From positions 1 through 4,408 of IMG/VR virus record IMGVR_UViG_3300006879_000538: DNA of 4,408 nt; one strand, given 5' to 3'. The notes under the pieces are model-generated. The model ran no database searches, had not been told where the DNA came from, and saw only the letters and a program-made list of their open reading frames with translations. Source of the DNA: a virus. Lineage: Duplodnaviria; Heunggongvirae; Uroviricota; Caudoviricetes. Below, piece after piece: positions 1 through 4,408 of the stretch (its first letter is position 1; each line of letters starts with the position of its first letter). Both the position numbers and the translations under genes were made by a program.

Positions 1-1166
1 GTACAGGACGCAGATTCGTTGTATCTGATATCAATGTTTGATGACGACAAAGCCCCCGGGGATTTCCCAATCGTCAGTTCCTGAATATCGTAATAGCGTG
101 CATTCCCGCCACTCACCACGCCAAGATTCGCCGGTGAGTAAATGCGACTTAAAAGGACCGAATCACCAATCATCAGACTATTGATATAGTCGGAAATAGC
201 CTGCTGGATCTGCTGCCCTATCTGTGAGGTATAACCCGTAAAAACTTTTAATTTAATCCGGGCATAAACAGGTACATCACTGGAACGCGAGAATTTGATT
301 ACATGGGGATTGCCGTATTTATCCGGAACCGTAACGGATGTTGTACCGTGAGTGGCTGTCCCCTGGCCTTTATTCCCTCTGATAGCCTGAGCAATATCCG
401 TCACATCACCGCCATCCACAATTACAGCAACAGAGTGTGGCGGTAACCCATTACCGTCCTCCGAACCAGTATCGTTTTCATAGAGTTTGTGGCGGGTTAC
501 ACCGGTAACATTAGAAACAGCACCATCCAGTGCTTCAAATGGGGTTATTGATGGCAACGCAACACTTTGCGACTGGCGGATACGTAACTCAGCATCAGTT
601 TCTGCCGGAGAGCCAACAGTAGCCGCAGCAGGATTAGTTACCGAAACCCAGCCACGGGTTGGCGTATTAATTTCAGTGATAGTTCCAGCCAGCGCCGCCA
701 CTGCACCACTGACGGAACATGTTGCGGTCGCCATCACTGTACCATCCACGCCGACCACCACTGAAGCAGGCAAACGCCATATCACATTATTACTGTCTTT
801 CACGCTGCCATTAATGATGGTTGTTCCGGCAGTTCCTGTAAGAAGCAAATCAACCGTAGAGTTCGTCGCGCCTTTACGTGAAATACCATTTATTTTCACG
901 TTACTGGTCAGTGCAGCCCCATAGCCGGTTGCCGGTGAAAAACAGTTGTAGACAGTTATCGCCGTATTATTGGCATCATGAATCGCCAGCGCCATCAGAG
1001 CCACCATCTGGCCGTCTTTGCTGTCCGGTTCGAGGTAGGCATCACTGCCATAAATCTGCTGAAAATAGCTAATCAGGGTGCTGAGTATCGTCTGATAATC
1101 AGGCGCACTGATCCCCTCCGCGGTTACCTTTGCAGATAAACCGAGAGAATCAAGGTTCAGAGCCAT
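1..1166 (-). CDS. Baseplate J-like protein (Mu gp47 / P2 gpJ family), 3' end truncated by window edge
   Basis: ATG at 1166..1164 overlaps the stop of the upstream gene (TAATG); GGAGG lies 4-5 nt upstream. I hand-translated the frame from 1166 toward position 1 (about 388 codons, beginning MALNLDSLGLSAKVTAEGISAPDYQTILSTLISYFQQIYG) and found no stop. Family call is from position directly after V-like and GP46-like genes plus general sequence character, not from a search. Confidence 0.6.
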   Translation of the reverse strand, partial: MALNLDSLGLSAKVTAEGISAPDYQTILSTLISYFQQIYGSDAYLEPDSKDGQMVALMALAIHDANNTAITVYNCFSPATGYGAALTSNVKINGISRKGATNSTVDLLLTGTAGTTIINGSVKDSNNVIWRLPASVVVGVDGTVMATATCSVSGAVAALAGTITEINTPTRGWVSVTNPAAATVGSPAETDAELRIRQSQSVALPSITPFEALDGAVSNVTGVTRHKLYENDTGSEDGNGLPPHSVAVIVDGGDVTDIAQAIRGNKGQGTATHGTTSVTVPDKYGNPHVIKFSRSSDVPVYARIKLKVFTGYTSQIGQQIQQAISDYINSLMIGDSVLLSRIYSPANLGVVSGGNARYYDIQELTIGKSPGALSSSNIDIRYNESASC

Positions 1167-1519
1167 TACGCCTCCGATGTAACAGTCGTTATTCCATAAA
1201 GAGTGTCGATTTCAGCGGAAAACATGACACGTCGGGTCGTGGTATCCAGCGTCGTATTGAAAGAGAGGATTGATTTAACGCCCCGCGTTTCGAGGATGCG
1301 CTTACGGATCGCCAGGTTGTAGGTTTCCGGCTTCTGCTTACCGAGTACGGACTGGATCCACGGAGTCCCCTCGGTGGTGTCGAGAAACCATTGCCCATAC
1401 CACAATTCGAATCGCGTTTTTACCGCCTGCGCCACGGCCTCCGGTGAGTTAATCAGCCAGGTGTCATCACCGCTGCCAAAGGTGTAATCGCCATCGGCGT
1501 CTTCACGTCTGTATCGCAT
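1166..1519 (-). CDS. Phage GP46-family small baseplate protein (gp25/gpW-like wedge component), 117 aa
   Basis: ORF in the track (MRYRREDADGDYTFGSGDDTWLINSPEAV...). Its ATG overlaps the stop of the V-like gene (ATGA at 1517..1520) and its stop overlaps the J-like start. Size and position between V-like and J-like genes match the Mu gp45-gp46-gp47 arrangement. Confidence 0.65.
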   Translation of the reverse strand: MRYRREDADGDYTFGSGDDTWLINSPEAVAQAVKTRFELWYGQWFLDTTEGTPWIQSVLGKQKPETYNLAIRKRILETRGVKSILSFNTTLDTTTRRVMFSAEIDTLYGITTVTSEA

Positions 1520-2271
1520 CAGTTTACTCCGTCGGTATTGCTTCCACCGCGCTGAACACCACCATGAGTGTGCGTATCATCGATTGGCTTGCCGTTAGCC
1601 TTCACGCTACCCAAAAACTCAACAGCACCAGTAATTTTTGAAGCCACACCAGAAACAACAGACCCCACCATGCCCCCCATCCAGGTTAACAGGCCATGAA
1701 TGGTTACTTTCTCAGAAAAATCAGCCAGAGGGGCAACCACATCAAGGCCCCCCGGAGCAACAATTTTAATTTTCCCGGTATCAGGATTAAGCTCAAAATA
1801 GGTGCTGCCATCGTCACTACGCAACTGTGTGGCACTGGTATTAATACCGCTAATCTTCCTAGCCTGCGACTGGGGACCGACAATACAAAACGCATCCGAT
1901 AAATCATGCATTCTGTCATCAACAGGCTCCTGTATCCCGCCGTTCTGCCACCAGAAATCAATACAACGATCGGCAAAAACGACAAGACACTCATCCCCGG
2001 CTTTTACCGGAAAAGTCAACGTACAGCCTCCGCCGCGCGGAAATACCACCGGCACATCCACCAGTAGCGGGTAATTTTTGGTTACGCGGTTGCCGTCGTT
2101 GTCGGTTTCAACCGAACGAATAGCAGGCTGCACAACCGCCGTCACCGCGTCAGGATCGAATGACTGAACGATGCCAGGCAAAGCGACGCGGATCTGGTTC
2201 TTTGTGGTTTCCCGCTCGGATTTGAATGTTTCGGCAAGGTCGCCGCTGCGGGTCTGGTCAGATACTGCCAT
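1519..2271 (-). CDS. Baseplate assembly protein V-like / tail spike (Mu gp45-like), 250 aa
   Basis: ORF in the track. The segment PLLVDVPVVFPRGGGCTLTFPVKAGDECLVVFADRCIDFWWQNGG resembles the N-terminal OB-fold region of gpV-family spike proteins, and the C-terminal part is Gly-rich. GGAG lies about 7 nt upstream of the ATG at 2271. Synteny with the GP46-like and J-like genes supports the call. Confidence 0.7.
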   Translation of the reverse strand: MAVSDQTRSGDLAETFKSERETTKNQIRVALPGIVQSFDPDAVTAVVQPAIRSVETDNDGNRVTKNYPLLVDVPVVFPRGGGCTLTFPVKAGDECLVVFADRCIDFWWQNGGIQEPVDDRMHDLSDAFCIVGPQSQARKISGINTSATQLRSDDGSTYFELNPDTGKIKIVAPGGLDVVAPLADFSEKVTIHGLLTWMGGMVGSVVSGVASKITGAVEFLGSVKANGKPIDDTHTHGGVQRGGSNTDGVN

Positions 2272-2290
2272 TTGTTAGGCTCCAGAAAGC

Positions 2291-2314
2291 AAAAAACCCG
2301 CCGGATGGCGGGTT
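2291..2314 (-). terminator. Rho-independent terminator for minus-strand transcription, downstream of the HEPN gene
   Basis: Inverted repeat aacccgcc (2295-2302), loop ggat, ggcgggtt (2307-2314) on the plus strand. On the minus strand the GC-rich stem is followed directly by a T6 run (complement of a-run 2291-2296). It sits 18 nt after the HEPN stop (2332) and about 20 nt before the V-like start (2271). Confidence 0.6.
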
Positions 2315-2331
2315 CGTAAATAAACTTTTTG

Positions 2332-2712
2332 CTAGGCTACTTGGGATTTCATTTCTGCTATTTTGTCCAACATCTTGTTCACCACTGCAATAGATGAACT
2401 TGCTTCAGTTTGCAAAATAGTCTCTGTTAGATCGTAGTCCGCGCGCTTACGCTTCATTTTTTGCTGTTTGAGAACTGCCCCCAACTGGATAAGAGACATT
2501 AACTCATAAGGTTCATCCTTCCGCCTTGCATCCGAAATAAGATATTGAACAACTCCATCATGTGTTGTCGGCGGGCAACACGTCAAAAGGCCACATGTTT
2601 CATGGTAGAACGCATAGTATGCCCGTGAAATAGCACTTCTGAAACCAGACTCAATACCAGTGTCTAAACATGCACGGGATGCGTCAATGAACTCTTTTCC
2701 TTGGATACTCAT
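2332..2712 (-). CDS. HEPN-domain protein, putative RNase toxin/effector, 126 aa
   Basis: ORF in the track. Residues 29-58 (SRAYYAFYHETCGLLTCCPPTTHDGVVQYL) match the pattern I recall for classical HEPN proteins: an R-x6-H motif inside an RAYYA.FH helix followed by a conserved H.GV segment. The motif R30-H37 is encoded at 2602..2625 (RC = CGGGCATACTATGCGTTCTACCAT). Start ATG overlaps the stop of the upstream gene by 4 nt (ATGA). Confidence 0.7.
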   Translation of the reverse strand: MSIQGKEFIDASRACLDTGIESGFRSAISRAYYAFYHETCGLLTCCPPTTHDGVVQYLISDARRKDEPYELMSLIQLGAVLKQQKMKRKRADYDLTETILQTEASSSIAVVNKMLDKIAEMKSQVA

Positions 2713-3482
2713 ATCGTGAAGTGAATCTCCTGCCGATTACGCCCGCGGAACCAGGCCGTCACATTCTTTCCAGCGAAGATCTCATTCATTGCAATTTCAG
2801 TAGCAACGTCAATATCCATATCGGAAAGCATATCGGCATCCTCACATAAAACATCACAAACTATGCCAGCATCCCCATCCGGGCTTGTGACATAGTCATG
2901 AGAAATAGCTAAAACACCATAATTCTTAGCGACATTAGTAATTGTTCTGGAAAGAAGATTTATCTCATTCGTGCTTAAATCAGTCACACTTATGAATGTA
3001 TCTAATGCCCGTTTTTTTTCCATGATATCTGACTCCATGCTTTCTCGCTCGCTCTCACTTCCGATCATAGACAGAGCTTTTCGAGCAAAAAAGAGTGATA
3101 GTTCACCATCGCCGTCAGCATAGGCTGCATTCCTTGCTCGTATGCACAAAGCAAGGCTGGTAATTTCCCGAGCTAACCTCACAGCCTCTTCTCGGTACAA
3201 TTCATACTGTCCAGTATGACTGAGGTAAGAAAGATAATTTCTGGCTACTGTTTCGTCACGGTATGCAACTGCCTCCTGAAAAAAACCGACAGCTTCAACA
3301 TGTTGATGCGCAGCTCCATAAGCCAGAGCCAACACCATCAACTTAACTGGCTCATCAGGGATTTTGCCTGCTTCAGAGACAACTCGCTTTAGCGTAAAAG
3401 CATCCAGTTGCTGCCCTTCATCAATACGTGAAGTAAGCATCTCAAGCGTTTCATTCAGTTTGCTATACAGTGCAAGTGACAT
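2709..3482 (-). CDS. Hypothetical protein, 257 aa, operon partner of the HEPN gene (candidate antitoxin/sensor)
   Basis: ORF in the track. AAGGAGG lies 6 nt upstream of the ATG at 3482..3480. The N-terminal half (about residues 45-140) looks alpha-helical and possibly TPR-like (LALAYGAAHQHVEAVGFFQEAVAY...YLSYLSHTGQYELYREEAV). The C-terminal region is acidic (residues 202-229, DGDAGIVCDVLCEDADMLSDMDIDVATE). I see no Walker A motif and no clear GS...DxD nucleotidyltransferase signature. Confidence 0.65.
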   Translation of the reverse strand: MSLALYSKLNETLEMLTSRIDEGQQLDAFTLKRVVSEAGKIPDEPVKLMVLALAYGAAHQHVEAVGFFQEAVAYRDETVARNYLSYLSHTGQYELYREEAVRLAREITSLALCIRARNAAYADGDGELSLFFARKALSMIGSESERESMESDIMEKKRALDTFISVTDLSTNEINLLSRTITNVAKNYGVLAISHDYVTSPDGDAGIVCDVLCEDADMLSDMDIDVATEIAMNEIFAGKNVTAWFRGRNRQEIHFTI

Positions 3483-3533
3483 TAATCATCCTCCTTAACG
3501 GAGGAATTTATCATTGGAAGGCATCATCAACAA
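3483..3533 (-). promoter_or_regulatory. Putative sigma70-type promoter, palindromic element and SD for the two-gene operon
   Basis: Read on the minus strand: candidate -35 TTGTTG (3533..3528), 17-nt spacer, TG-extended -10 TAAATT (3510..3505), then the perfect palindrome TCCTCC-GTTAA-GGAGGA (3505..3489) whose downstream arm is the SD, then the ATG at 3482. Promoter hexamers are a modest match to consensus. Confidence 0.35.
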
Positions 3534-3680
3534 CCTGTTGTTTTATTCATTAATCCATATTCTAGACTAATGCTTTGCTCTTTTCTAAGGAGAGAAAGGA
3601 GAACTGGTTAAAATTTCTTACTCTCACCCAGCCACTTTTTTACAAGGGAAAGATTCGATGATTTTCGGCGCATCCATGAC

Positions 3681-4157
3681 TTAATAACCTTGAGATTTAG
3701 CAACGCGAATACCGGCCGCCATCCCATTGAAATCCCATGCGTTTTTATGGGCAATAGGATTACGTGTGTTGAAGGCATAGCGCTGGCCCATTTTCCATGC
3801 TGTATCGCTAACAGACTTATCTTGAGAGAGGTTTACCCACTCCTTTATGCCTTTGTAAACATAGGACTTACAATCATCCGTAGTTCCTTTCCGATTGGTG
3901 TAGGCATCCAGATCTTCGCATTCTTGAAAGGAGTTGCTGACTATATCCGCGAAATCATCAATGGTCATGGCGAATCTGCGACCATTCATAGCGAAAAAAG
4001 GAGTAGCAGAGGCGTAATGTTGCCACTGCGTAAACTTTTGCTGATCCATTAAATCAACAGCCATTTTTTCATACTTCCCAGGAGCGGATAATCCCGACAT
4101 CGGAACAAGTAAACTTATTGCAATAAAAATGGCTTTCTTATTCAATCTTATCCCCAC
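3681..4157 (-). CDS. Hypothetical secreted/periplasmic protein with N-terminal signal peptide (start codon uncertain: GTG 4157 or TTG 4145; track ATG 4226 less likely)
   Basis: The track ORF (3681..4226) contains an internal signal-peptide-like segment, LNKKAIFIAISLLVPMSGLSA-PGK, which only makes sense at an N-terminus. GTG at 4157..4155 lies 10 nt after AAGGAG (4173..4168); TTG at 4145..4143 is the alternative. The predicted mature protein has two Cys (QECEDL..., ...DDCKSY), compatible with a periplasmic disulfide. I recognise no family. Confidence 0.55.
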   Translation of the reverse strand: MGIRLNKKAIFIAISLLVPMSGLSAPGKYEKMAVDLMDQQKFTQWQHYASATPFFAMNGRRFAMTIDDFADIVSNSFQECEDLDAYTNRKGTTDDCKSYVYKGIKEWVNLSQDKSVSDTAWKMGQRYAFNTRNPIAHKNAWDFNGMAAGIRVAKSQGY

Positions 4158-4408
4158 CGATTCATTGCTCCTTGACTTTGAAGATCCGCCGCGCCACGCG
4201 CTTGGCACATCATATCCATGTACCACGCCTGGCCCCTTGTGTCACCAGTGTACATAATCCCGCGCACAATATAAACGCCATCCGTTGCGATGCTGGCAGG
4301 TTGTGCTGTGGTGCCGCTGAGCGTGATATTACCGTCCGTGTTCTGGTCGGTGATCTGACCACCAGCCATAGCGATATCGTTGTTCGACAACGCGGCGCGA
4401 TATACAGA
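4148..4408 (-). CDS. C-terminal fragment of an upstream phage tail/baseplate gene (possibly the baseplate hub, Mu gp44 / P2 gpD-like, by synteny), 5' end beyond window
   Basis: The minus-strand frame is open from the window edge (4408) to TAA at 4150..4148 (…SNNDIAMAGGQITDQNTDGNITLSGTTAQPASIATDGVYIVRGIMYTGDTRGQAWYMDMMCQARG…). The track's TTG start at 4390 is probably internal. Functional call rests only on position upstream of the V-like gene. Confidence 0.4.
   Translation of the reverse strand, partial: SVYRAALSNNDIAMAGGQITDQNTDGNITLSGTTAQPASIATDGVYIVRGIMYTGDTRGQAWYMDMMCQARGAADLQSQGAMNRWG

Follow-up and report, generated by a model that had tools for sequence, protein, structure and literature searches.

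Late operons of lambdoid phages reportedly contain extra genes known as morons, a concept of Hendrix, Juhala and colleagues. Here we describe a comparable arrangement in a stretch of 4,408 nucleotides from a tailed phage (IMG/VR record IMGVR_UViG_3300006879_000538, Caudoviricetes; the whole stretch is called the window below), in which the interval 2315-4181 very probably represents accessory cargo in a recombination hotspot between the baseplate hub and spike genes of a temperate contractile-tailed phage of Enterobacterales. Like morons, this cargo lies between conserved structural genes, is present in some relatives only, deviates in composition, is followed by a terminator and is preceded by a candidate promoter. 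Unlike morons, the interval is occupied in every relative examined, it is divided into two sub-slots by a conserved internal anchor, and its promoter is a candidate.

Phages P2 and P4 carry hotspots of antiviral systems (2022, PMC9122126; follow-up PMC13586616). The slot described here resembles them in having a fixed position between conserved phage genes, at which many small alternative cassettes, toxin-like and HEPN-containing ones among them, turn over without transposable elements. It differs in that the lineage is SEN34-like with a Pam3/E217-type baseplate, that the position is hub-to-spike, inside the baseplate cluster, and that the fillers are putative defences, most of which PADLOC does not recognise. 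With regard to its HEPN gene, the HEPN-T toxins of the HEPN-MNT (type VII) systems (PF05168 / UPF0332, PMC3710099) have a minimal nucleotidyltransferase as partner, whereas the partner in the window is a TPR-like plus alpha/beta protein and PF05168 does not score; assignment as a HEPN-MNT pair was rejected because the partner is not a nucleotidyltransferase. Tha of Staphylococcus aureus is a prophage-encoded HEPN defence triggered by tail proteins (Rostol et al. 2024, PMC11087260). It shares with the window pair a HEPN effector (putative here) and carriage on a prophage, but Tha is a single protein of 301 amino acids (aa) with a canonical RX4H motif, lies in the lysogeny region and has an antisense inhibitor gene, and no sequence relationship was found between Tha and the proteins of the window pair. 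The phenomenon is a familiar moron- or defence-type hotspot and not a new kind of element; no description of this particular slot was found in the literature searched.

The slot and its frame consist of the following parts, named by comparison with related loci (L numbers).

4182..4408, minus strand: right conserved anchor, within the hub gene; GC content about 55%, homology with relatives up to 4181/4182.
3679..4181, minus strand: module A, the last 11 hub codons and stop (4180-4148) plus the secreted-protein gene; junctions 3678/3679 and 4181/4182 against L004.
3612..3678, minus strand: middle conserved anchor, an island of 45-67 bp that is the 3' end of a small gene in most relatives.
2315..3611, minus strand: module B, a leader, the 257-aa protein gene and the 126-aa HEPN gene, then an intrinsic terminator.
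2272..2315, minus strand: left conserved anchor, the intrinsic terminator and the spike-gene ribosome-binding site (RBS); homology with relatives ends at 2313-2328.

Two comparisons define the junctions. Against Escherichia phage vB_EcoM-689R2 (L001), the window matches over 1-2314 (97%) and 4181-4408 (94%), and in between only over a 46-bp island (3633-3678), the remainder of the interval being replaced in L001 by 895 bp of unrelated sequence. Against Escherichia coli AH19B041 (L004), 98% homology extends over 1-3678 and resumes at 4182, the secreted-protein gene being the sole difference. Eight further loci have the same three anchors (2313-2328, 3612/3637-3678 and 4181-4184), so that the cargo consists of two modules, A and B. 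Flank identity is 92-98% in the E. coli phages and prophages, and despite this the interval between the flanks is unrelated (L001, L017-L020, L036). The initial annotation had suggested that horizontally acquired cargo was inserted between the upstream tail gene and the V-like gene, and this exchange of unrelated genes between conserved flanks agrees with it. The alignments with relatives place the junctions at 2314/2315 and 4181/4182, where no short direct repeats were found, and a search for flanking direct or inverted repeats at 2315 and 4181 gave nothing meaningful. The extent given at first (2272-4157) was therefore approximate: with true edges at 2315 and 4181, the block takes in the last 11 hub codons and leaves out 43 bp just upstream of V.

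The anchors themselves are well conserved. Up to 4181/4182, the hub anchor shares 91-94% identity with the hub genes of L001, L004 and L017-L020; its sequence pattern is ...ATGATGTG[CT]GAAGC.CGTGGCGC, and the left anchor has the order ACCCGCC-N4-GGCGGGTTTTTTG ... GGAG (terminator/RBS). The middle island matches L001, L002, L003, L017, L018, L019 and L020 at 82-91%, irrespective of the cargo on either side, and appears, from this pattern of conservation, to serve as a recombination anchor between the two sub-slots. In the window it is a non-coding remnant of the 3' end of a 109-115-aa gene, situated just downstream of the secreted-protein stop codon.

Judged from the loci compared, modules A and B reassort independently and do not constitute one insert. 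Module A is paired with four module-B contents, namely the window pair, its variant 3 (HCM-22C-2), its variant 2 (PEC209) and a YafO cassette (strain 35); L025, L005 and strain 35 have it beside module-B types other than that of the window, and in Hafnia phage yong1 its neighbours are unrelated genes. Thus, the single insert originally envisaged is upheld as acquired cargo but has to be replaced by two modules in a three-anchor replacement hotspot. It was also observed that the last ~11 hub residues (4148-4180) vary with the module-A gene that follows (L001, L004, L005, L006, L017-L019, L025, L036); since the C-terminal tail of the hub co-varies with module A, a cargo swap rewrites the C-terminus of a structural protein.

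The contents of the slot vary widely. Thirteen related loci, five deposited phage genomes and eight E. coli prophages, were compared, and all thirteen have different genes in the hub-to-spike slot; at least ten different fillers occur at identical junctions. The slot has a GC content of 37-44%, compared with 47-57% for the flanks, in the 10/10 related loci measured. The fillers include gene pairs encoding 111 + 170 aa, 113 + 266 aa and 77 + 138 aa, a small gene with a DUF4282 gene, a STY1065/STY2022-family protein with a 184-aa weakly PycTM-like protein and a 56-aa protein, a 190-aa protein with a YafO toxin (Pfam E 4e-17) and, in Klebsiella phage Mulock, 112 + 148 aa. PADLOC gave weak matches only for the fillers (PycTM-like, 2.6e-4; HEPN_IX, 3e-3 to 9e-3) and none for the window's own proteins. 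The 184-aa protein (L019 4008-4562) is the one with weak PADLOC PycTM/2TM-effector similarity, E 2.6e-4, and in E. coli NCTC9022 a single 241-aa gene occupies the entire slot (L036 3537-4262). Among 5426 complete E. coli genomes, 373 of which match at least part of the tail-gene window, the window pair is present in 2, variant 2 in 3 and variant 3 in 33. An empty slot, in which the hub gene is directly followed by the spike gene, was sought in the relatives and none was seen, the smallest slot being ~685 bp. Because no empty-slot relative was seen and the junctions lack direct repeats, the slot is, on the alignments, a replacement hotspot and not the site of a one-off insertion.

The compositional evidence leads to the same boundaries. 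An AT-richer block between baseplate genes had been noticed by eye, and this is borne out by the GC values, by segmentation and by codon usage. GC content is 42.9% in 2272-4157, 50.7% in 1-2271 and 55.0% in 4158-4408 (inside versus outside the block, 2x2 chi-square p = 8e-8). The cargo genes had been estimated at low to mid 40s and indeed lie at 43.3% (HEPN gene), 43.9% (257-aa gene) and 44.1% (secreted-protein open reading frame (ORF)), with 37.4% in the 198-bp intergenic stretch 3483-3680; the estimate of about 50% or above for the flanks is correct for V (51.8%), W (53.4%) and the hub part (~55%, 55.5% for its C-terminus) but not for J, which has 49.1%. Maximum-likelihood segmentation with two breakpoints, based on GC only, placed the best breaks at 2316 and 4185 (42.6% inside, 51.3% outside), with a log-likelihood ratio of 15.4-16.5, whereas 200 shuffles of 60-bp blocks averaged 4.9 and did not exceed 9.3. 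These breaks agree within a few bases with the homology junctions at 2314/2315 and 4181/4182, which means that a GC break seen by eye can locate a cargo slot to within a few bases.

For codon usage, contig L021 was used; it is colinear with the window and shares 98.3% identity with it along the full length. GC at synonymous third positions (GC3s) is 0.367 for the cargo, calculated over its three genes, compared with 0.537 for ten tail genes; 5000 contiguous chunks of equal size drawn from the tail genes included none with a GC3s as low as that of the cargo, and the synonymous codons of cargo and tail genes differ (chi-square p = 3e-9). The GC difference is not an amino-acid effect, because the shift is concentrated at synonymous third positions. 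Had GC and codon usage shown no difference, this would have spoken against the proposed block; the difference found is significant at synonymous sites.

As for how the slot is filled, three short anchors frame the two sub-slots, namely the hub gene except for its last 11 codons and stop, the 45-67 bp island, and the terminator with the RBS. Related phages that co-reside in or co-infect a host would most likely swap whole modules by homologous recombination at these anchors, a step that we infer, and recombination of modules at the anchors would explain both the independent assortment of A and B and the identical junction bases. Since there are neither repeats at the junctions nor a transposase, homologous recombination at conserved anchors is the most likely route. 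The cargo retains a foreign, AT-rich composition and codon usage. This prophage lineage, whose tail genes have matches in ~7% of complete E. coli genomes, has a variable slot in its baseplate cluster that is mapped here at base resolution. Slots of this kind have been productive sources of new anti-phage systems, and several of the two-gene cassettes found in this one are unannotated, among them a HEPN pair that goes unrecognised by current defence catalogues; the three conserved anchors of the slot provide a simple rule for collecting all cargo variants from genome collections.

Module B, which contains this HEPN pair, has the following elements.

3483..3611, minus strand: leader of module B, with a sigma-70-like site, a palindrome and a hairpin that pairs the Shine-Dalgarno sequence.
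2709..3482, minus strand: gene 1 of module B, for the 257-aa protein (TPR-like helical repeat at the N-terminus, small alpha/beta domain at the C-terminus).
2332..2712, minus strand: gene 2 of module B, for the 126-aa HEPN protein of AF0298 / UPF0332 (HEPN-T) type.
2315-2294 (stem-loop), minus strand: intrinsic terminator, GAACCCGCC-ATCC-GGCGGGTTT, then a T run; found by terminator scan.

The 126-aa protein is assigned to the HEPN type on the basis of fold, profile match and residues. Its AlphaFold2 (AF2) model has a pLDDT of 92 and the helical-bundle fold of HEPN proteins, and the profile of its family (A1) matches the HEPN structures 9xbd/9xbc (E 2e-7) and 2hsb (E 6.8e-4) in the PDB, the alignment lining up the SRaYYa and R..DYdL motifs. 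R88, D92 and Y93 are invariant in the family and H51 is at least 90% conserved; in the AF2 model H51 belongs to the insert that separates helix 2 from helix 3 and lies in the loop that joins helices 21-42 and 51-59. Anantharaman et al. (2013, PMC3710099) describe AF0298-like HEPN-T proteins as having D in place of the motif His, with the active site perhaps completed by an alternative His. The 126-aa protein fits this signature, with the conserved R of Rx4-6H, D replacing H, and an alternative His (by the criterion of PMC3710099). A Pfam-A scan of the 126-aa protein gave no PF05168 hit at E <= 0.1. The term HEPN cassette used in the initial annotation therefore holds for the HEPN protein, but the cassette is not of the HEPN-MNT kind, given its TPR-like partner.

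The partner, the 257-aa protein, has its TPR-like repeat at about residues 3-187 and its alpha/beta domain at about 192-253; a PDB profile search with its family (A2) gave weak TPR/PPR repeat matches and nothing beyond. Its family is small (134 hits among 1.84 billion representatives), and most members are full-length proteins of 245-290 aa. In the window, the end of the 257-aa gene and the beginning of the HEPN gene share 4 bp, and in every locus examined the two genes are adjacent, with an overlap of 4 bp or longer. In E. coli, three divergent variants of the pair share one sub-slot. Variants 1 and 2 have 38% identity in the HEPN protein and ~20% in the partner, and variant 3 is detected by hhalign with a probability of 98% for the HEPN protein and 85.5% for the partner. 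All carriers of the pair in the loci examined are prophages, in which it is located in or beside contractile-tail modules. PHROGs families matched by the pair proteins are of unknown function only, the DefensePredictor supplements do not list the pair accessions, and a literature search on the RefSeq accessions, PHROG ids and PDB 9xbd/9xbc returned no relevant paper; the TPR-like plus HEPN pair thus appears to be undescribed in the libraries and literature searched.

Two occurrences outside the hub-to-spike slot were observed. A contig of Aeromonas bestiarum (L026) has a homologue of the pair (260 aa + 131 aa, 4235-5396) in a Mu-like tail module, between the tape-measure and DNA-circulation genes, that is, in another slot of another phage lineage, with a similar terminator after it. 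In a Dickeya contig (L029, 4234-5381), the pair follows a spike-like gene and a 214-aa gene and adjoins Bro-N / P22 antirepressor-like and Arc-like genes, at the edge of the tail module and not inside it.

The pair is preceded and followed by candidate control elements. The sigma-70-like site in the leader consists of TAGAAA (3587-3582), a spacer of 17 nt and TAGAAT (3564-3559), with a score of 9/12. The palindrome AACAAC-AG-GTTGTT (3542-3529) is shared without change, flanks included, by the E. coli, Citrobacter koseri and Dickeya versions (loci L029, L030, L032). A hairpin, TCCTCCgttaAGGAGGA (3505-3489), is predicted to pair the Shine-Dalgarno sequence of the 257-aa gene; hairpins of this kind are predicted in four divergent versions, and their folding z-scores are not significant against shuffles. 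The palindrome and the hairpin may be an operator plus a translational control element. At the other end, the terminator is strong, has a 9-bp stem with 6 G-C pairs and is located immediately upstream of the spike RBS. The element ACCCGCC-N4-GGCGGGTTTTTTG is found upstream of V, whatever the cargo, in every relative compared at the junction (L001, L005, L017-L020, L026, L028, L036), and only the loop differs; the same terminator element also follows the HEPN gene in the Aeromonas Mu-like context. As this terminator stands in the middle of the late tail operon, transcription of the late operon past it may depend on antitermination. Rfam gave no hit at E <= 1 when the whole window was scanned.

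The layout of module B is moron-like, with an AT-rich leader of its own that would comprise the conserved palindrome and the candidate promoter, and with the last gene followed by an intrinsic terminator; leader and terminator would permit expression in the prophage without read-through into the tail genes. The HEPN protein would be an RNase effector, and the fast-evolving TPR-like partner would restrain it, sense an invader, or both. The most likely function of module B, which we put forward tentatively, would be that of a toxin-antitoxin-like abortive-infection or defence cassette, based on the gene order, the translational coupling, the HEPN-T toxin type, the faster-evolving partner, the location in a hotspot that also holds YafO, and, in the loci examined, the carriage by prophages only. 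A more specific and rather unlikely possibility is that the pair is an undescribed family of phage-borne abortive-infection systems living specifically inside contractile-tail gene clusters, in which the partner would sense a structural protein of the invader and release the HEPN RNase, while the leader palindrome, the Shine-Dalgarno hairpin and the terminator would limit expression and spare the carrier.

Several points weigh against accessory cargo with a defence function expressed from the prophage. With 9/12, the promoter match is weak, and shuffles contain such sites at least as often as the leader does; the folding energies of the hairpin are likewise not significant. The HEPN protein is without the canonical Rx4-6H histidine, and its predicted catalysis is therefore not assured. 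Neither pair protein is recognised by PADLOC, Pfam or NCBIfam. The cargo is co-oriented with the late operon in which it lies and may therefore also, or only, be expressed late in lytic growth. Finally, the pair recurs in the slot across several genera, which makes it an old resident and not a recent arrival.

Among the alternatives, the one that survives best concerns function: module B may be a plain addiction (toxin-antitoxin) module, or an RNase for host takeover in the lytic cycle, and not an anti-phage defence, which we regard as unlikely but as a serious competitor. Like HEPN-MNT systems, module B is a translationally coupled operon of two genes with a small protein of HEPN-T toxin type downstream, the conserved leader palindrome would suit autoregulation, and in other prophages this sub-slot is taken by a YafO toxin cassette; the late-operon orientation of the cassette would fit a lytic function. 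However, at 257 aa the TPR-like partner greatly exceeds the size of a typical antitoxin, and its divergence is much faster than that of the HEPN protein (20% versus 38% identity between variants), as would be expected of a sensor in an arms race, neither of which is decisive.

Much less probable is that the block is native DNA that the phage requires, for example for tail assembly or regulation, and that it is AT-rich by its own constraints. The genes are tightly packed and co-oriented with the tail operon, the pair is present in the same slot in prophages of Citrobacter, Klebsiella, Pectobacterium and Pantoea, and so far it has been seen only in or beside contractile-tail modules. Against this, deposited phages and hundreds of prophages with flanks of 92-98% identity hold unrelated genes in the slot, none of the three cargo proteins (0/3) matches a structural PHROG or Pfam family, and their codon usage is sharply unlike that of the ten tail genes. 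It should be noted that conservation of the same genes in synteny throughout the family, which would have spoken against acquisition, was not found family-wide, yet the pair does recur in the slot in several genera.

Insertion of the block by a mobile element, whether a transposon, an IS or a site-specific integrating cassette, is equally improbable. The sharp compositional boundaries and the recurrence of the junction positions in many genomes would fit such an origin, but the ORF list of the block contains no transposase, integrase or recombinase, terminal inverted and flanking direct repeats are absent at 2315/4181, and the junctions lie inside conserved sequence common to all cargo, with an internal island that permits half-swaps. 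The view that the GC contrast reflects ordinary gene-to-gene variation or amino-acid composition, to which the low GC3 of J (0.46) and of the neighbouring wedge gene (0.45) relative to the upstream tail genes lends some weight, is rejected as next to impossible, since the block-shuffle and contiguous-chunk controls never attain the observed values and the effect is located at synonymous third positions.

Returning to the accessory cargo, the gene in module A is the following.

4157 or 4145..3681, minus strand: secreted-protein gene, with a Sec signal peptide.

It stands where relatives usually have the 109-115-aa gene. Its product has a typical Sec signal peptide, MNKK-AIFIAISLLVPMSGLSA/PGK, and belongs to a family of 19 clusters with two invariant Cys, all named members of which are from Enterobacterales. 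No match was obtained in Pfam, PHROG, PADLOC, NCBIfam or a PDB profile search, and the protein has no recognisable relatives there. The product of module A is predicted to be periplasmic and, speculatively, might be a lysogenic-conversion or exclusion factor. The start codon is either TTG at 4145 (154 aa; used in most homologues and by PGAP in L025) or GTG at 4157 (158 aa), which overlaps the hub stop codon and is called so in Logan contigs.

The genes around the slot are, like every gene of the window, on the minus strand.

4408..4148, running off the window, minus strand: baseplate hub gene, 3' part (Mu gp44 / E217 gp41-like); phrog_196, E 1.7e-12.
1519..2271, minus strand: spike gene (P2 V / Mu gp45-like, 250 aa); PF18352, E 2.6e-44, plus the GpV Apex motif.
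1166..1519, minus strand: sheath-initiator / gp46 (W)-like gene; phrog_120, phrog_6 and PF04865 are given jointly for the W and J flank.
3..1166, running off the window, minus strand: Baseplate_J / gp47-like gene, with the same joint matches.

For the colinear W-like gene in L007, PF10934 (Sheath_initiator) is recorded. Longer colinear contigs have PhiTE-type tube, tape measure, Dit-like, Pam3_gp18-like and E217_gp41-like proteins upstream, and wedge and fibre genes downstream, the whole being a contractile tail module. The backbone is that of a SEN34-like temperate contractile-tailed phage (myophage) of Enterobacterales with a Pam3/E217-type baseplate.

Two further observations concern the flanks. 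In the spike gene, homology to L020, L024 and SEN34 (L003) is lost over about 1580-1806 (about residues 156-231), while both sides match, and this gap coincides with a local dip in GC to 48%; the pattern suggests that the spike gene contains a second mosaic segment. The W / gp46-like protein WP_001270632.1 (L004, L005, L017) is named inconsistently between genomes in RefSeq, where it appears as 'hypothetical protein', 'contractile injection system sheath initiator' and 'thioredoxin domain-containing protein'.

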